From a bacterium (lineage in GTDB: Bacteria; Hydrothermota; 32-111), in the NCBI GenBank assembly GCA_050239825.1, contig JBFXGO010000022.1, positions 1 to 39,128 of the forward strand: a stretch of DNA of 39,128 nucleotides, in the 5' to 3' direction. The notes beneath the pieces are model-generated. The model worked only from the letters and a program-made list of their open reading frames with translations, was not told where the DNA came from and made no database searches. The translations under genes and the position numbers were made by a program. Shown in pieces: positions 4,406 to 29,939 of the stretch. The number at the start of each line of letters is the position of its first letter. Position 1 is the stretch's first letter.

Positions 4406-4458
4406 TTATCCCAACTTTTATTTGAATATTTATTATTTTTATAATCTTATCAAAATAA

Positions 4459-4487
4459 ATTTTACTAAATATATTTATTTTTGTCAA
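4459..4487 (-). promoter_or_regulatory. Sigma70-type promoter for the PorV-like/PLC operon
   Basis: Minus strand TTGACA-N17-TAAAAT, about 55 bp upstream of ATG 4405. Confidence 0.6.
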
Positions 4488-4490
4488 GAC

Positions 4491-4536
4491 CCGAGTTTTT
4501 CAGCGATAGTGTCCTCATATAGTGTAAATAATACAA
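4491..4536 (+). repeat. 46-bp direct repeat, copy 1 (IS left end)
   Basis: 45/46 identical to 10660-10705 (mismatch C4504 vs T10673). Confidence 0.95.
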
Positions 4537-4642
4537 TATGAATGATGGTTTTTCAACATATAGGGGGTAATCCCTGTATATTGAGCCGCCTCGGTTGCAT
4601 TTATCGGCGGAATAGTTATAATAATCTTATAGGAGGTAAAAA

Positions 4643-4822
4643 TTGGACACTACACTAAACGAACCTCATTCCGCCCTCTCTTATGTCTCTCCTCAACAAG
4701 CTCTCATCGGTCTAAAAGATAACATCCTCGCTCAAAGAAAAGCCAATCTCGCTTATGCTAAATCCATAAGATATAATGCTTGGACAAAATCTCAAAACCC
4801 TTGCTTTTTAACAGCTCTTTGA
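4643..4822 (+). pseudogene. IS3-like transposase remnant (C-terminal end of integrase core)
   Basis: AGGAGG RBS, TTG start, 59 aa MDTTLNEPHSALSYVSPQQALIGLKDNILAQRKANLAYAKSIRYNAW... This matches the YNxxRxHSxLxYxxP...GxxxxIxxxRxxxLxxAxxxR tail of IS3-like transposases; the DDE core is absent. Confidence 0.65.
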
Positions 4823-4847
4823 TAGTATCTCTGTCAGTTACTTGAGG

Positions 4848-4910
4848 TCAATCTCGCTGAATTACTCCGTTGTCATAATGGAAACTGTAAAAGATTTGTC
4901 TTTTTGCCAT
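4848..4910 (-). pseudogene. Second TIR (ThsB/DUF1863-like) gene, truncated after about 14 codons by the IS right end
   Basis: AAGGAG RBS then MAKRQIFYSFHYDN|GVIQRD*, compared with MARRAFFSFHYKND of the adjacent TIR. Similarity ends at the IS terminal repeat (about 4869). Confidence 0.8.
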
Positions 4911-4932
4911 TTGTTAGCTCCTTTATAATTTG

Positions 4933-5421
4933 TCAGCGACCCACATCTTCTGCTGCTTTTTCGATCCATTCGCCCAATTTGTTATAACCATCATCATCCA
5001 CATAGTCATAGATTTTGGCTACTTGATAAAAATAGACGCTCTCTCCTTTGTCGTTTTTGCCTATCTCTCCAAATGTCGTTTCTCCTTTTGAAGAAGTATT
5101 GCCGTCTTTATCTTTCAATTTATGAATATGAACGCCTACTAAACCATTTCCTTTTTTGTAGCTTTCCTGTAATTCATACTTTACATATTTTCGCGTTGAT
5201 GTCTCACTACCTATTAAGACAATTGTTACAGATGTCCCTTTCAGTTGTTCATCAATCCAGTCTTCAACAGCTTTATCCCCTTTTTCTTTGATTTTTTCAA
5301 ATTCAGCAGAATCTATAAACCCCGCTGCTTCTTTACCCTGAGTGACCCAGCTATTTCGCACTTGGTTCGCTCGCCATACATCATTTTTGTAATGAAAACT
5401 GAAAAATGCTCTACGTGCCAT
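4933..5421 (-). CDS. TIR-like domain protein (ThsB/DUF1863/MTH538 family)
   Basis: FFSFHY...RANQVRN...WIDEQLKGTSVTIVLIGSET..RKYVKYEL (putative catalytic Glu)...GNGLVGVHI; AGGAGG RBS. Confidence 0.9.
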   Translation of the reverse strand: MARRAFFSFHYKNDVWRANQVRNSWVTQGKEAAGFIDSAEFEKIKEKGDKAVEDWIDEQLKGTSVTIVLIGSETSTRKYVKYELQESYKKGNGLVGVHIHKLKDKDGNTSSKGETTFGEIGKNDKGESVYFYQVAKIYDYVDDDGYNKLGEWIEKAAEDVGR

Positions 5422-5433
5422 TATATATCCTCC

Positions 5434-5868
5434 TTATGATAATTTTTGAATAATAAAAATCAATACGGCAATGATTATGTAAAATGGAGTTGTCGAAAAA
5501 GACCAAGCTCCGCAAATTGTAAGGCCTATTTTCTTTGACAGTTTTTTGGGGCCTTGTAGCTTGTAGACCATTTTGTAATCGAACTTATCCGAATCTAACC
5601 CTTCAACAAACTCATTATAAATGTTTCTGAAATGTCGTTCCAAACCGAGATAAAAACAATCCAAAAAGAAGAACATGGCCAATGGTACATAGGCAATATA
5701 AAAGACCCCGCTCTTTGACCTGTCAATCAATAAGACGACAATCGCCGAAATTATCGTTATCGCCCACGTCTTGCTGTTGGCACTGTTTCCAGCCATTCGG
5801 CTGATCACATTTTGTAAGATGTTAATGTGGTTTTGAATTGCCGAGTTCTCTTTCAAATTACTGTCCAT
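5434..5868 (-). CDS. Small membrane protein (about 3 TM), candidate TIR-coupled effector
   Basis: 144 aa with HINILQNVISRMAGNS..KTW, FFFLDCFYLGLERHFR.IY and three hydrophobic segments. GGAGG RBS; lies between mod and TIR with 9-12 bp gaps. Confidence 0.8.
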   Translation of the reverse strand: MDSNLKENSAIQNHINILQNVISRMAGNSANSKTWAITIISAIVVLLIDRSKSGVFYIAYVPLAMFFFLDCFYLGLERHFRNIYNEFVEGLDSDKFDYKMVYKLQGPKKLSKKIGLTICGAWSFSTTPFYIIIAVLIFIIQKLS

Positions 5869-5877
5869 TTTGTCCTC

Positions 5878-7800
5878 CTAAAAAGCAATCAATTTATCGC
5901 CAAGCAAATGCTTCAAATTCCACTTCATCGTTGTATCAAGCGACCGTTCAAGACAGATAAAAATGGTGTCCTTGTGCGCTTCCAAGTCGTTTAAAGTATG
6001 CTTGTCAATAGCCATGTCCATACAGATAAGACATTCTTTAAAACTGTCTTTTATCCGGTAAACCTTATTTTTTGTAAAAGAAGCTTCTTGCGTTTTTGAA
6101 TAATTCAACATAAAACCATTTTTCAGAAGCACTTCATCGAAAATATTCTTTTCGTCTATCATAGATAGGAACATGGCTTCTTTTTCTTCGATATATTTGT
6201 CGAGAAGCGCAAGGTTTTCTTCCTCGGTTTTAGACGGATCAGGTGCGAAGTCTATCCGGGGAAAATTGGACTTGCCGAGTTTATAGACTTTAAAGCCGGT
6301 TTTAAATGGCTTTTTATCATCAAGTAGTGTCCGTTGTTTGTCGGCTTCTTCTTTTTCAATTTTTTGAATAACTCGTTTATTACGTTCAATGGTAATGTCT
6401 GATATTTTTAAAAATCCTGCTGAAATCGCTTTTTTGCCAGTATCAGTTTTATCTGTCAGTAATTCTGGTAATTGAACAAGGATAACTTTTCTTTCTAATC
6501 CATCATTTTTATTTAGCTCCATCACTGCTTGACCAGTTGAGCCAGAACCAGCAAAAAAATCAAGAATAATATCACCATTATATTCGCACATTTGAATTAA
6601 ACTTTTTATCACATCAGGATTTTTTGGAAAATCAAACAAATCAGATATTTCCTCTGTTGATTTTGATGCAAAAAAATCGTACCAGTTTGTATTTCTTAAA
6701 ATTCCCGTTGTCGGAGGTATCCAATGTTCAACACCTTTATTCATACCTTTTCCATCAGTGTTTCTTCTAATGAACTCCAATTTTTTGCCAGTTCGCACCC
6801 AATAGTCCTCTAATGATTCATTTTCACCACACTCTTTTTGATATTTTAAATAATTATCAACAGCAATTTTTGCTCTTCCTTCACTCCATTTCCATTGCCC
6901 TGTTTCCGGTTTGAAACCTAAAATATCATACCTCATTGTTGGACGATTAGCATTATTCCAAAATCCTTTCCAATAACCATAATTTTGTCTATCCTCGGAT
7001 GCCTCGCGATATATTGGATTAAATTTAAACTCAGACGATTTTGAATAACATATGATATATTCAAATCCAACATTAAAAGAAGCTAATCCATTTTCAATAA
7101 ATTGACGATTAATATTTTTATCATAGCGACGAGTGCTAATTGTATTGCGGTAATTTTCTTCACCAAAAACATCATCCAGTAACTTTCTCATATTATGGTA
7201 TTCTTCATCACCAATAGAAACAAAAATAGCCCCGTCACTTTGTAATAATTGTCTTGCAACAAGAAGCCGTGGTAAAAGCATATTTAGCCAATTAGAATGA
7301 AAACGGCCATTAGATTCAGAATTAGTATCAATTATGCACCCTTCTTGTGTTATACCAATGTGTTCCCAATAATTCTCCTTAGATTCATCCCAAGTGTCAT
7401 TATAAACAAAATCCCCATCAACATTATAGGGCGGGTCGATATAAATACATTTCACACGCTCCCGGTAACCCGAAAGCAAACATTTCAAAGTCTCAAGATT
7501 TTCCCCCTCAATAATCATATTACCGTCAGCATAATCGGGATTTACGCTTTTTTTTTCATCATAGACAAGCGTTGCCTTACTTGGCGTAAAAGCGTTCCGT
7601 TTTGCTTCGCTTTTTCCAAACCATTTAAATTCAAAACGCTCGGTTTCTTTTACCAAATCAGGGTCGATAATCTTTTTCAGTTCATCTGGATTTAGTTTTC
7701 CTTCAACAGTGAATAGGTCTGGGAAAAGAGTTTTTAAAGTTACGAGCCGTTCTTTATTTAAATCAGGAGTTTGCATAAGTTTTTTATCGAGTTCAGACAT
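5878..7800 (-). CDS. mod: Type III R-M system DNA methyltransferase (Mod)
   Basis: IEGENLETLK, IYIDPPYN (motif IV), HSNWLNM..PRL..AR.LL, FPKN, ILDFFAGSGST (motif I); beta-class motif order; adjacent to res. Confidence 0.92.
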   Translation of the reverse strand: MSELDKKLMQTPDLNKERLVTLKTLFPDLFTVEGKLNPDELKKIIDPDLVKETERFEFKWFGKSEAKRNAFTPSKATLVYDEKKSVNPDYADGNMIIEGENLETLKCLLSGYRERVKCIYIDPPYNVDGDFVYNDTWDESKENYWEHIGITQEGCIIDTNSESNGRFHSNWLNMLLPRLLVARQLLQSDGAIFVSIGDEEYHNMRKLLDDVFGEENYRNTISTRRYDKNINRQFIENGLASFNVGFEYIICYSKSSEFKFNPIYREASEDRQNYGYWKGFWNNANRPTMRYDILGFKPETGQWKWSEGRAKIAVDNYLKYQKECGENESLEDYWVRTGKKLEFIRRNTDGKGMNKGVEHWIPPTTGILRNTNWYDFFASKSTEEISDLFDFPKNPDVIKSLIQMCEYNGDIILDFFAGSGSTGQAVMELNKNDGLERKVILVQLPELLTDKTDTGKKAISAGFLKISDITIERNKRVIQKIEKEEADKQRTLLDDKKPFKTGFKVYKLGKSNFPRIDFAPDPSKTEEENLALLDKYIEEKEAMFLSMIDEKNIFDEVLLKNGFMLNYSKTQEASFTKNKVYRIKDSFKECLICMDMAIDKHTLNDLEAHKDTIFICLERSLDTTMKWNLKHLLGDKLIAF

Positions 7801-10483
7801 TGGTAAGTACCTCCGCTTTATTCTTGAAAGTCGAGTATTCTTTTATGGGTGCAAGATAATTGACCTTGGCTTCAATACCTAAAGCCTCAAAGTGTTTAAC
7901 CGCACATTTAATTTTATAGATTTCATTTTCAGTAAGTGATTTTCTATCATCAAGGCTGTTAGTACCCTTGGTTTCAATAACGAAATAATATTCGCTGCCA
8001 CTTTCTTCTCGTAATTTATTCTTTTTTAAAACAAGACCGAAATCGGGATTGTATTCACCCGCCGGTGTCTTAATTACATAAAAAGACGGGAGCTTTAAAA
8101 AGCATACGACTTCAGTATCACTGTCTGCTTCGCGGGCGAATTTTTGTTCGTGTTCGCTATCCCAAATAATATGATCATAAATGCCCTTGTTTGGTGTTGG
8201 CTCAATTTTATCGGTATTTTTAACTATGAATTGTTCAAACTGGTTTATATCAAATGTCTCCCCTGTAGTACGGTAATCTAGCGCACGAAGCATTTCATCA
8301 AGTTCAATGTAGCAGATTTTTTGGACTGCTTCTTTTAAGAAGCGAGGTGGACTTTTCAACATCTCTTTTTTGTTGTTAAAACCTTGTACGATTTTAATGA
8401 CGGTAGGATAAGCAAGGGCTGTATTTTCACTTAATTCTTCAATCAGGTCTATCGGCGAAAAGACGGTACTAACTGTTTTATTCTGTGTTCTGAAATCTTC
8501 TGTCTGTATTCCTTCCTCGGACATGCTTTGAATCCTGCCGAGGGCAACCTGTACCTGATGTTCCGAAATTGTGATTTCATTTATGGCTTTAATGGATTCT
8601 TCAATAATTCTATTTTCGTCGAAGGATACAAGATATTCTGTTTTTTGAGAAAGTCGTTTCCAGAATTCACGGAAAGAAGGGTTGTTGAAATGAGTGTCGT
8701 TTCTGGACAAACGTTTTTCAGTAGTTTTTTGTCCCTTGTGAGTGTTACGGGTTTCGGCTCCTGCTTCGCTTGTTCCATAAATTTCTGCTATCTCTGATTG
8801 GTATTGTGAAACAAAGGCTTCGTAAGTTTCATTTGGAATAACGGTAAGGAGGTTTATCTCGTTGCCTTCCTTTGTTTCGGGTTTATCATAAACACGCTGC
8901 CCATCCTGATTAACGCAAATGCGAAGGCCTCTGCCAATTTCCTGTCTTTTTTTAATTTCGCTGTAACTCTGATTCAGAGTAGCTATGTTAAATACATTCG
9001 GATTATCCCAACCTACACCAAGGGCAGAGTGGGAAAAGATAAACTCGACTGGATTATTCAGTGACAACAATTCTTCTTTTGATTTCAGGATAAGGTCATA
9101 AAGCTCTTTGTTGTTCCGCATTGAGCCTTCATCGTCAGTAAAATCACCTTTTCCAGTTTGCGCAAAATAGTAGCCCTGCACCTGTTCGATTTTTAAATTA
9201 TCAGCATCCTTGCCGTAAAAATCTTTGTGCGCTTTTTTGTATTGTTCTACAAATGACTTCTTAATGATTCCGTTTGGTTGAATGTAATTATCAACCCTGT
9301 CAATAAATGTAAGAGAGAGGCATTTAATTCCCGATTGTTTCAGTATTTCTTTTTTTCTGAAATGAGTATCAATAAGCCAATACAGTTGTTCTCCGAATAT
9401 TACAGAAAAGTCTTTTGCTTGCTCTCCCTCATAAATAATAGCCCCATTTTTGAATTTTACAAAACCCTTGCAGCGAATTGGCCGGGCAATTTGTTCAATA
9501 ACATAGCCTTTGTAGGTAATATTTTCGGTTACTTCTTGTAAGTCTGCATTTTTGTCGAGTTTCTTTGTGTATTTAAATTTAAAACCGTTTGCTGTTTGAT
9601 GCCAAGCTTTTAAAACTGCTTTTGGTTCACCTTTTCCTAATTCAATTTTATCAAGTTCAATTTTCATGGATGCTTCATCGTTCTTTTCAGAAACAGTTAA
9701 AACCTCAATTTTTTTGACAAGACCCTGCTTATAACTGTCATAAGGTGTTAAGCGATAAATCAGATTGGTTAATATTTTATGTGTTGCAGAATATCTGATT
9801 TTGAATAGCGGTTTGAGGGTTTTCAATCTCTCGACCGAATTTTCAGTATCCATGCCTTCCTGAGGTTCATCCATAATAACAATCGGATTTGTACGAGAAA
9901 TGGCTTCGATATATGCCATATTCGAGAATAAATCTTCCCGCTGCACTTGATTCAAAATACGGTCATCGGAATTGAAAGACTGAAGAGTCATTACCATTAT
10001 TTGCGGATGCTGTTCTTCAACAAAATTGGTAACTTTTGAAAGCCTTTTACTGTCATATTCAAAATAGCTGGGCTTTATGTTGTAGATGTCTTCCAGTTGT
10101 TTTTCAAATGTTTTTAAAGTTGTTAGTACGCCTTCTTTAATAGCAACAGAGGGAACAAGAATGATAAATTTTGTAAAGCCATATTGCTTATAAAGCTCAA
10201 AAACAGTTTTTATATATACAAGAGTTTTACCAGTACCAGTTTCCATCTCGACACAAATATCATTAGACGACTGAATATTTGCCGTTTCTTCCTTAAGTCC
10301 GTTTTCAAGAATAATATCTTTAAGGTTCTGAATAATTTCATCGCTTGATAATGAAAGAGTATTTGACCGTATTCCTTCAACACAGGCATTGTCAAAAGTA
10401 TTCTTTTCCTGTCCTTTGAAAACAGAAATAACAGACTTTATAGCTTGTTGTTGGTATTCTAACTGTTCAAGTTTTAATTCCAT
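7793..10483 (-). CDS. res: Type III R-M system restriction subunit (Res)
   Basis: EMETGTGKT Walker A, DEPQ Walker B variant, YSATH, HSAL..GWDNPNVF, QEIGRGLR helicase motifs and C-terminal YNPDF...ETKG PD-(D/E)xK nuclease. Start ATG 10483 or TTG 10486. Confidence 0.93.
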   Translation of the reverse strand: MELKLEQLEYQQQAIKSVISVFKGQEKNTFDNACVEGIRSNTLSLSSDEIIQNLKDIILENGLKEETANIQSSNDICVEMETGTGKTLVYIKTVFELYKQYGFTKFIILVPSVAIKEGVLTTLKTFEKQLEDIYNIKPSYFEYDSKRLSKVTNFVEEQHPQIMVMTLQSFNSDDRILNQVQREDLFSNMAYIEAISRTNPIVIMDEPQEGMDTENSVERLKTLKPLFKIRYSATHKILTNLIYRLTPYDSYKQGLVKKIEVLTVSEKNDEASMKIELDKIELGKGEPKAVLKAWHQTANGFKFKYTKKLDKNADLQEVTENITYKGYVIEQIARPIRCKGFVKFKNGAIIYEGEQAKDFSVIFGEQLYWLIDTHFRKKEILKQSGIKCLSLTFIDRVDNYIQPNGIIKKSFVEQYKKAHKDFYGKDADNLKIEQVQGYYFAQTGKGDFTDDEGSMRNNKELYDLILKSKEELLSLNNPVEFIFSHSALGVGWDNPNVFNIATLNQSYSEIKKRQEIGRGLRICVNQDGQRVYDKPETKEGNEINLLTVIPNETYEAFVSQYQSEIAEIYGTSEAGAETRNTHKGQKTTEKRLSRNDTHFNNPSFREFWKRLSQKTEYLVSFDENRIIEESIKAINEITISEHQVQVALGRIQSMSEEGIQTEDFRTQNKTVSTVFSPIDLIEELSENTALAYPTVIKIVQGFNNKKEMLKSPPRFLKEAVQKICYIELDEMLRALDYRTTGETFDINQFEQFIVKNTDKIEPTPNKGIYDHIIWDSEHEQKFAREADSDTEVVCFLKLPSFYVIKTPAGEYNPDFGLVLKKNKLREESGSEYYFVIETKGTNSLDDRKSLTENEIYKIKCAVKHFEALGIEAKVNYLAPIKEYSTFKNKAEVLTNV

Positions 10484-10563
10484 CAATTCATTTCCTCTAT
10501 CTTTTCTTCATGCCCAACACGGACATTGGGCATTCTTGACGGGCAAGTTTTTAATCTTCTCAT
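10483..10563 (-). CDS. Possible 26-aa leader ORF coupled to res
   Basis: GAGGT RBS, MRRLKTCPSRMPNVRVGHEEKIEEMN*. Its TGA overlaps the res ATG (TGATG). Contains an 8-bp perfect stem at 10510-10533. Confidence 0.3.
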   Translation of the reverse strand: MRRLKTCPSRMPNVRVGHEEKIEEMN

Positions 10564-10659: not shown

Positions 10660-10705
10660 CCGAGTTTTTCAGTGATAGTGTCCTCATATAGTGTAAATAA
10701 TACAA
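10660..10705 (+). repeat. 46-bp direct repeat, copy 2 (isolated IS left end)
   Basis: 45/46 identical to 4491-4536; no matching right end or transposase found between here and rng. Confidence 0.9.
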
Positions 10706-10725
10706 GACAATGGCTCTTTTGTCAA
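10697..10725 (-). promoter_or_regulatory. Sigma70-type promoter facing the res-mod-TM-TIR operon
   Basis: Minus strand TTGACA-N17-TATTAT; the -10 box lies inside the repeated IS end. Confidence 0.55.
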
Positions 10726-28334: not shown

Positions 28335-29050
28335 AATCTGAACTTTTCACCAAGGTAAATTTCTCTTGCCTTCTTATCGTTTATAAGTTCATCCGCCGTT
28401 CCCGAAAGAAGAATTCTGCCTTCATAAATTATATGCGCAATATCTGTGATTTCAAGAGTCTCCCTTACATTGTGGTCTGTTATCAATATACCGATTCCGT
28501 CAGAAGCAAGCTGTCGGATAATATGCTGAATATCCTCTTTCACTTTAGGGTCTATACCGGTAAAGGGTTCATCCAAAAGAAGAAATTTCGGGTTTGATGC
28601 AAGTGCTCGGGAGATCTCCACTCTCCGTCTCTCGCCACCAGACAGTTTTCCGCCAGCACTCTTTCTTATATGGGTGACCTTAAGCTTTTCAAGAAGGAAA
28701 TCTCTTTTCTCCCGTATCTTTGCTTTGCTCAGATTCTGCATTTCAAGAATCGCATCGATATTCTGTTCAACCGTCAGATGACGGAAAACAGATGCCTCCT
28801 GCGGGAGGTATCCGAGACCGAGCCTTGCGCGTTTGTACATGGGCAAATTTGTAATTTCATTATCGGAAAGAAGTATTTTGCCGCTGTCGCATTTGATCAT
28901 TCCCACAATCATGTAAAATGAAGTGGTTTTGCCTGCTCCGTTCGGACCTAGAAGTCCAACAACCTGGCCGGTCTCGACGGATACGGAGACTCTATCGACA
29001 ACAGTTCTCTTGCTGTAGCTTTTTACAAGATTTTCACTCTTTAATATCAT
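28331..29050 (-). CDS. lptB: LPS export ABC transporter ATPase
   Basis: [54 protein letters not shown]. Start taken at MILKS (29050). Confidence 0.95.
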
Positions 29051-29939
29051 TTTCTTCCCTCGTTTCAAGTTCGCTCTTTGTAATCAGATAAAAGAAGGTC
29101 TTCTTCATTTTATTCTGTTCTAATTTGCTCTCCAAAGAGTCGCATAGAATGCTCACATCTTCATTTTCTTCAATCGCTCTGAAATCAACATTCCTGTAAG
29201 CGATCATAAAATCCAAAGAATCATTCTTGAAGAGCATTTTTACAGTATCGGCCGAAAGCGTTATGTTGTCGTTTTCAATTATGGTTCTGCCGTATGTCTT
29301 TGCGTAATCCTTTTTTGCCGTGTAAACCAAAGAATCTGTTTCAAGCTGTATGCTGTCTATGCGAACTATGCAGGAGTGATAGAAGGTGTAAATCGAATCG
29401 TCCGGCATTATAATAGTTGTGTCAGATTCTATTGTATAACCCTCATTTTTATTGAATATCGATTTATTAAAAAGACGCATCGTGTCATCGGCGAATGAGT
29501 ACTCTATTGTGTCTCCCGAAGCAAAACTCCGGCGCGAATCAAAGTACAGAACAGGATTGATTGTATAGATAAAGAGACTCTCATTCAAGAGTATATTCAA
29601 AGAGTCGCTCTCTATTAAAAACGAACCGCTTTTATCAGTAGTCTGAGAGAAGAGATTAAAAACCTTGCCTCTCATAAAATAGACTCCACTCTCTGCATTG
29701 ATTACAGTCGAATCCGACCTTGTCACCACAAGTTTTCTCGGCATCACAACAACCGAGTCGCGTCTGAAAAAGAGCGCAGTATCTGTATTGACAGTAAAAT
29801 CATCGGTGAGAAGAATCACTCCGGCGCTCATATGAACAGTGTCGCCAAGTATAACTGTTTTTTCCGAAGTAAGCGTATAACCGCAAAGATGAGCGCTCAG
29901 CCAAAGAAGGTTGATGAAAATGCAAATCCTAATCGCCAT
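29034..29939 (-). CDS. lptA: LptA/OstA-like beta-jellyroll protein (long form)
   Basis: Lies between lptC and lptB; signal-like N-terminus; repeated short strands (xxSDSLxx, xxGDTIxY, xxADTVxM). Confidence 0.6.

Follow-up and report, generated by a model that had tools for sequence, protein, structure and literature searches.

A PDC-M50 pair of a three-helix membrane protein and a ThsB-type TIR protein behind a type III restriction-modification operon, a probable Thoeris-type defence module

The window analysed here is the whole 39,128-nucleotide (nt) stretch of contig JBFXGO010000022.1 (assembly GCA_050239825.1) from a bacterium of the phylum Hydrothermota, and all positions given below are those of this stretch. 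A gene array at 4848-10486 on its minus strand contains a type III restriction-modification (R-M) operon and, directly behind it, a gene for a membrane protein of 144 amino acids (aa) and a gene for a 162-aa TIR protein of the ThsB type. We found that this pair is the PADLOC candidate system PDC-M50 and has already been catalogued. The window probably carries a Thoeris-type abortive-infection module, packed behind the R-M operon in a small repeat-flanked island and working through the steps proposed below. In this module the effector role of ThsA has most likely been taken over by the small membrane protein, which would respond to a signal made by the TIR protein. It is fairly likely that PDC-M50 is the same kind of system as type V Thoeris (ThsB with ThsF), and a very similar or identical kind of system is already experimentally verified.

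The membrane gene (5434-5868) matches the model PDC-M50A (8.4e-29) over residues 10-141 of its product, and the adjoining TIR gene (4933-5421) matches PDC-M50B (1.9e-60) over residues 1-159; both matches run nearly end to end. An earlier note on this DNA, made from the letters alone, had left open whether the pair was new, and these two matches in adjacent genes answer that it was not. The accessible text of the source (PMC12988326) describes PDC systems as unpublished, unvalidated PADLOC candidates, and the name PDC-M50 carries no function or mechanism. The window adds an example from an uncultured lineage to an already catalogued kind of defence pair.

Co-occurrence of the membrane family with TIR proteins

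We scanned one genome per species for the membrane family, obtained 305 relatives and kept the 80 best-scoring loci (loci are cited by L numbers). A TIR gene was detectable by phmmer with the window TIR at 42 of these 80 loci and by an iterated local TIR profile at 65, and Pfam alone added four more (L013, L015, L039 and L048), which brings the loci with a TIR nearby to 69 of 80. At 53 loci the TIR gene lies on the same strand within 150 nt of the membrane gene: upstream only at 38, downstream only, which is the arrangement of the window, at 9, and on both sides at 6 (L001, L043, L045, L046, L067 and L077). In L043, L046 and L077 a 124-aa short TIR stands upstream and a 162-176-aa ThsB downstream of the membrane gene.

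For the reciprocal sample we used the TIR alignment to collect 80 metagenomic loci, whose TIRs are 47-91% identical to that of the window. The membrane family is present in 49 of them. From the remaining 31 loci, 39 of the 101 neighbouring open reading frames (ORFs) were run against Pfam, and a full ThsA with SIR2_2 and STALD was found in 14 loci and a partial ThsA in 3; other SLOG proteins were present in 4 loci, and one locus (L140) has a SLATT protein. Moreover, the window TIR is 64% identical to the TIRs of the SIR2-SLOG operons L090 and L094. One TIR clade thus alternates between SIR2-SLOG ThsA and the membrane family, as in an effector swap. Among the computational results, this alternation speaks most strongly for the membrane protein as effector and the TIR protein as maker of the signal. 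It also bears on what the earlier note had proposed, a Thoeris-like TIR module with a minimal three-helix partner in place of the canonical ThsA. The association it suggested measuring is strongly positive in both directions, and relatives of the window TIR do not always stand beside a canonical ThsA.

When the 1027 neighbouring ORFs were clustered, we obtained the membrane family (80 loci), a TIR cluster (54) and three smaller clusters (10, 8 and 7). The smaller ones look TIR-like by eye, and one of them holds an ORF matched by the TIR profile. No third recurrent partner gene was found among these ORFs. In the metagenomic locus L085 (1142-2607, compared with 4933-5868 of the window) a TIR that is 90% identical to that of the window follows a membrane partner that is 39% identical over 82 residues, a mismatch that reads as module shuffling.

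The ThsB-type TIR protein

The window TIR matches PF08937 (2.3e-26) and the PADLOC model ThsB1 (1.2e-68). A profile built from this protein and 23 relatives found PDB entry 8wcf_A at 2.7e-62 and the ThsB structures 6lhy and 9b7d at about 7e-42. The glutamate of the motif YVKYEL, E83, is invariant in all 24 aligned TIRs that adjoin the membrane family, and it aligns with the glutamate of VRYEI in the solved ThsB structure 6LHY. The latter is E85 by count, which we take to be the catalytic residue of ThsB. The intact ThsB-type TIR with a putative catalytic glutamate, as described in the earlier note, is therefore well founded.

The same note wrote of one or more TIRs, and here only the first holds, since what follows it is a remnant. 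Three metagenomic loci, L084, L085 and L086, have a first TIR that is 90-91% identical to that of the window and, directly behind it, an intact second TIR of 160 aa. The DNA of the window is near-identical to theirs up to about position 4869, 14 codons into the second TIR, and unrelated beyond. The remnant of the second thsB (4848-4910, minus strand) runs for 20 codons before a stop, the first 14 of which (4910-4869) are homologous to the intact gene, and a dispersed repeat lies beyond this point. By this alignment the module was apparently effector-thsB-thsB in origin and is now effector-thsB with a stub, and the island has lost its second TIR gene through rearrangement.

The membrane protein

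Hydropathy gives three hydrophobic segments, at residues about 30-48, 53-76 and 118-144, and the AF2 (AlphaFold 2) model (pLDDT 87.4, pTM 0.78) has helices at 9-49, 53-91, 110-121 and 127-143. The loop between the first two transmembrane (TM) segments has 4 residues, and the linker at 77-121 contains 9 lysines or arginines. The predicted layout is a cytoplasmic amphipathic N-terminal helix, TM1, a four-residue outer loop, TM2, a basic cytoplasmic linker and TM3, in which the N-terminus and the linker are placed in the cytoplasm because of the charge distribution. Among 34 aligned relatives, Q19, R24, M25, A26, S29, K33, L69, D70, Y73, L74, E77 and Y130 are invariant, and by the predicted topology all of them would lie at the cytoplasmic face. 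The polar motifs to which the earlier note drew attention are in fact genuine signatures of the family.

The protein belongs to no Pfam or NCBIfam family and has no recognisable ligand-binding domain. When the PDB was searched with the AF2 model by Foldseek, no match reached E<=0.001. A comparison by VIA-align with 48,161 chains had a best Z of 8.3, with generic helical hairpins and designed bundles, which is in the uninformative range for helical models. No known pore-effector fold was recovered, which does not show that the fold is new. A prediction of a four-copy complex, made without controls, scored 0.19 against a mark of 0.42 and speaks neither for nor against oligomerisation. In the ESM Atlas the 30 nearest clusters are unnamed hypothetical proteins, and structural neighbours fell below the bar.

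The membrane protein belongs to a large family. A word-indexed search gave 77 clusters, and a profile search of 1.84 billion representatives gave 5053 clusters at E<=1e-3 and 3531 at E<=1e-10. No longer relatives of 253-2000 aa were found at E<=0.001, which is weak evidence, and 20 longer representatives (179-304 aa) contain no TIR or other credible domain; the fusion to a HIT domain described below surfaced solely through tblastn on plasmids. With its 5053 clusters and 127 plasmid records the family is large and common, and it is without a Pfam family.

Comparison with known Thoeris types

A preprint of December 2025 (Yirmiya et al., bioRxiv 10.64898/2025.12.03.692087) lists 29 putative and 11 verified Thoeris types, and what is said of these types below follows its accessible text. 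Type I, which consists of ThsB and a SIR2-SLOG ThsA, resembles the window pair in the TIR clade (64% identity), in the profile match to 6LHY and in having multiple thsB genes per effector. It differs in the effector, which in the window is a 144-aa membrane protein and not an NADase. Neither SIR2-SLOG nor Macro domains were found among the 8 scanned ORFs of the window, in agreement with the earlier note, which had seen no SIR2-SLOG and no TM-Macro effector; no search was made for a caspase-like effector. The whole genome gave 0 STALD matches, a weak result since the search control was equally silent, and no Macro match, for which the control was positive in 8 of 14 genomes. Its sole SIR2_2 protein lies on another contig (C7), upstream of HerA.

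Types II and VII, with TM-Macro ThsC and SLATT ThsH respectively, share with the window pair the proposal that a TIR-made signal activates a membrane-disrupting effector (bioRxiv 10.64898/2025.12.03.692087). The window protein differs from both effectors: it has no Macro or SLATT match at E<=10 and no separate soluble ligand-binding domain. None of SLATT_1 to SLATT_6 was found among the families of the 34 relatives either, and SLATT is absent from the 25 most frequently matched families listed for 149 relatives; the same tool did detect the genuine SLATT protein of L140. The lack of their defining domains rules out types I, II and VII. Type XI combines ThsB with ThsL, a "hydrolase" in the preprint, and here the likeness is that the membrane module is shared with a HIT-bearing protein on a Rathayibacter plasmid. 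No HIT domain is present in the membrane protein or the operon of the window, and the HIT fusion occurs only in the plasmid homologue.

The probable counterpart is type V, a TIR protein with a three-helix effector, ThsF, annotated as PF10028 (DUF2270). This type has been experimentally verified; 3' cyclic ADP-ribose (3'cADPR) triggers its effector, for which the model is a ring of seven protomers that has basic pockets between them (bioRxiv 10.64898/2025.12.03.692087). The window pair likewise consists of two genes, and its small effector candidate has three membrane helices but lacks a soluble sensor domain. The TIRs of type V share a cluster with those of type I, and the TIR clade of the window also serves SIR2-SLOG ThsA. 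Moreover, type V is enriched in Bacteroidota, and many of the membrane-family loci found here are from Bacteroidota. In our literature search this preprint was the only work found on ThsF or type V Thoeris, and the membrane family is not treated in the accessible text of a domain-centric paper of 2026 in Nucleic Acids Research (NAR; PMC13069673).

No Pfam family is matched by more relatives of the membrane protein than PF10028, which gave hits in 5 of 34 (best E 0.029) and in 21 of 149 (best E 9e-4), all of them sub-threshold and far weaker than those of bona fide members. In the accessible methods of the preprint, hhsearch of cluster alignments against Pfam was used for calling TIR clusters. 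If effectors were annotated by hhsearch in the same way, a weak relation to DUF2270 could have become the label of the type V effector. PF10028 was not found in the genome of the window or in the 272 genomes of its phylum. Among 301 genomes from the phylum to which the Prevotella locus L027 belongs, one has a copy, and its neighbourhood is of the housekeeping kind and contains no TIR.

Proposed mechanism and rival explanations

We propose that the 162-aa ThsB TIR detects infection and that its active site, in which the glutamate E83 is present, would convert NAD+ into a signal derived from ADP-ribose. The signal would most likely be a cyclic ADP-ribose (cADPR) isomer such as 3'cADPR, which is the most plausible one because the same TIR clade serves SIR2-SLOG ThsA, and this effector reads 3'cADPR (bioRxiv 10.64898/2025.12.03.692087). 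The signal may then bind the membrane protein at its cytoplasmic face, where the invariant polar residues are predicted to sit. The putative site comprises Q19, R24, S29 and K33 of the N-terminal helix, D70, Y73 and E77 of inner TM2, and S123, P128, F129 and Y130 of inner TM3. The membrane protein, probably as a homo-oligomer, would disturb the membrane and halt the infected cell before phage release. The R-M genes would act on their own as a first line of defence and would only happen to lie in the same operon here. On this proposal the membrane family may provide the smallest receptor known for a nucleotide signal made by a TIR. To decide whether PDC-M50, type V and the HIT fusion have one membrane module in common would tidy the nomenclature, and it would also indicate where cADPR-type ligands can bind in a protein that lacks a soluble domain.

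Several observations weigh against this interpretation. The 80 membrane-family loci are the best-scoring ones and not a random sample, and 11 of them have no detected TIR: two lie at contig edges, the membrane gene of L037 is frameshifted, L003 has an AbiGi gene instead, and in L008 no TIR is among the best 25 of 53 Pfam families listed for a 1048-aa neighbour. A search of the full-text literature for "PDC-M50" found no paper, and no experiment is known on PDC-M50 as such or on this locus. The likeness to type V is one of description, drawn from the accessible text of the preprint and not from the sequence of ThsF. The window protein itself has no match to PF10028 even at E<=10. A comparison with DUF2270 by hhalign gave a probability of 10% over 20 columns, and with larger alignments 25% in local mode over 139 collinear columns and 0.8% in global mode. 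Four housekeeping DUF2270 proteins do not match PDC-M50A, the 80 TIR-centred loci gave no match to a local DUF2270 profile, and PGAP labels the Bacillota plasmid homologues "hypothetical protein", not DUF2270. Finally, we infer both the pocket and the nature of the signal, for a protein with no recognisable ligand-binding domain, and the authors of the preprint caution that the TIR may be an NAD+-depleting effector in configurations that have not been verified.

Should the 144-aa family have nothing to do with DUF2270 or ThsF, it would be an independent and still unverified receptor-effector for TIR signals, whose pocket would be made solely of the juxtamembrane amphipathic helix and the inner TM ends, and a module that is plugged onto small ThsB, SEFIR/TIR-FGE-sulfatase, cyanobacterial LRR-Roc-COR-TIR and fused HIT proteins. 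We hold this to be rather unlikely, with some real chance of being correct. If true, the cyanobacterial loci would be bacterial counterparts of the plant pathway in which a sensor of the NLR (nucleotide-binding leucine-rich repeat) type leads to a TIR signal and then to a membrane channel.

The warning of the preprint and the missing ligand-binding domain also favour a reversal of the roles, in which the TIR is an NAD+-depleting killer as in CBASS, Pycsar and SPARTA and the membrane protein is a sensor, anchor or regulator, responding for example to envelope damage or to the entry of phage DNA. Some partners are, moreover, large multidomain TIRs (LRR-Roc-COR-TIR and SEFIR/TIR-FGE-sulfatase). 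We consider such a reversal improbable, since the TIR clade alternates between the membrane family (49 loci) and ThsA (14 full and 3 partial), which is the effector of a signal-making ThsB. The TIR of the window, at 162 aa, is a minimal ThsB without further domains, whose profile matches 6LHY at about 7e-42, and a membrane gene accompanied by two or three thsB genes corresponds to the Thoeris pattern of several sensors per effector. The earlier note had allowed for activation of the membrane protein either by a TIR-made signal, which our results favour, or by direct contact with the TIR. By the latter route there would be no diffusible signal; on infection the TIR would act on the membrane protein by binding, so as to open or release it, in the manner of a toxin-antitoxin or guard pair. 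The tight coupling of the two genes, with 12 nt from stop to start, and the very small size of the membrane protein for a ligand receptor would suit this. At least five unrelated TIR architectures stand beside the membrane family, however, gene order and strand vary, and a conserved interface would not easily tolerate the pairing in L085 of a 90%-identical TIR with a 39%-identical membrane protein. The conservation of the glutamate at the catalytic position in all 24 TIRs points to a need for enzymatic activity. Direct contact is therefore a quite doubtful explanation.

The last reading to be weighed, also raised in the earlier note, is that the pair guards or backs up the type III R-M system and acts once its enzymes have been inhibited or overwhelmed. 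The genes do form one packed array, in which res shares 8 nt with mod and the ribosome-binding site of the membrane gene reaches into the stop of mod, and the genomic locus L003 also has a type III mod-res upstream of its membrane gene. Yet L003 is the only one of the 80 genomic loci with clear Mod and Res homologues, that is, 1 of 160 related loci, and weaker methyltransferase matches occur in 2 more genomic loci and in 1 of the 80 metagenomic ones. The close relatives L084-L086 have other neighbours, and the pair also travels alone on plasmids. We regard a guard function as very improbable, and the suggestion of the earlier note is not supported. Other loci of the membrane family adjoin other R-M types or sit on plasmids. 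Homologues of the Mod and Res of the window are rare at related loci, and the adjacency therefore looks like a local matter of ordinary defence-island packing.

Distribution and TIR architectures

Of the 272 genomes of the phylum, 10 contain the membrane family, whereas neither of the 2 other genomes of the genus does, and among the 13 genomes of the same family one has a degraded copy of the membrane gene. Relatives of the membrane protein were found in 127 plasmid records, 81 of which are predicted to be conjugative; 76 of the records are from Klebsiella (40) and Escherichia (36), and 10 are from Campylobacter. In all six plasmid loci inspected, a TIR gene stands next to the membrane gene or at most one gene away from it, and the examples on an E. 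coli IncI plasmid and a C. jejuni plasmid have the membrane gene followed by the TIR gene. A plasmid query with the Priestia homologue gave no Bacillus cereus-group record among the 30 matches listed or the ten commonest genera. This patchy distribution, together with the presence on plasmids, is defence-like behaviour.

The TIR architectures beside the membrane family number at least five: 160-aa ThsB, 125-aa short ThsB, TIR_2, SEFIR/TIR-FGE-sulfatase and LRR-Roc-COR-TIR. In the cyanobacterial loci L028, L039, L048, L013, L015, L057 and L058, large multidomain TIR proteins, not small ThsB, stand beside the membrane gene. They comprise LRR-Roc-COR-TIR proteins (842-1030 aa), SEFIR/TIR-FGE-sulfatase, SEFIR/TIR-VMAP and an 809-aa TIR_2 protein. 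On a Rathayibacter plasmid (NZ_CP047175.1; L164:2506-3417) a 303-aa protein has a HIT domain (4.5e-22) fused to a C-terminal match of the window membrane protein (E 2e-7), and it is flanked by two TIR genes.

The genome of the window has a second pair of TIR and membrane protein on contig C7 (L082:1486-2561, corresponding to G000:C7 about 28770-29845, and also sampled as L190). It consists of a 140-aa ThsB-type TIR (PF08937 2.6e-10) and, after 2 nt, a 216-aa multi-helix membrane protein without a Pfam or PADLOC family. It is flanked by a HerA ATPase (PADLOC 5.3e-139), ahead of which lies a 456-aa SIR2_2 protein, and by a ResIII-like helicase. We tried the 216-aa protein as a relative of the 144-aa family and ruled it out as detectable kin (hmmsearch E 0.049 in a one-sequence search; hhalign 1.3%).

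Gene array and island edges

The array begins with res (7793-10486, minus strand), which encodes an 897-aa type III restriction endonuclease matched by PADLOC REase_III (3.9e-188), Pfam ResIII (1.8e-16) and RE_endonuc (2.5e-29), and by NCBIfam PRK15483 at 6e-77, below its cut-off. It is followed on the same strand by mod (5878-7800), for a type III DNA methyltransferase of 640 aa (PADLOC MTase_III 3e-130; Pfam N6_N4_Mtase 1.4e-28). The membrane gene, for the candidate effector that is possibly ThsF-like, starts at ATG 5868-5866, and the AGGAGG ahead of it at 5879-5874 overlaps the mod stop TAG at 5880-5878. The TIR gene, for the candidate phage sensor and signal synthase, has its AGGAGG at 5434-5429, 7 nt ahead of the ATG. 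The two ORFs with their coordinates, the strong ribosome-binding sites and the placement behind res-mod are thus as the earlier note gave them. Because of the gene spacing, co-transcription of res, mod, the membrane gene and the TIR gene is likely in this genome.

The res-mod order of the window is the reverse of that in L003, where mod precedes res. This locus (L003:1033-7285), in a Bacteroidetes metagenome-assembled genome, contains the type III mod-res, AbiGi (PF10899 4.8e-27), the membrane gene (50% identical) and a 262-aa ORF, and a TIR is detectable in it neither by phmmer nor by the iterated profile or Pfam.

The genes res, mod, membrane and TIR form a small island bracketed by repeat sequence. 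At the downstream edge, a copy of a dispersed genomic repeat (4420-4870) abuts the truncated second TIR. As a query it gave 11 matches in its own genome including itself, among them one on contig C66 (94% over 445 bp), and several of the matches lie at contig ends. Upstream of res, at 10660-10725, a 46-nt piece of the repeat (10660-10705, 98% identity) is found together with a promoter-like site on the minus strand. This site, TTGACA-17-TATTAT at 10725-10697, agrees with the consensus at 11 of 12 positions and is the best of the region, by match to consensus only; it is the probable start of the transcription unit. A plus-strand ORF at 4643-4822, which resembles a transposase C-terminus by eye only, is part of the dispersed repeat at 4420-4870. 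A second promoter-like site with 11 of 12 positions lies at 4487-4459, and both repeat copies of the window overlap such sites.

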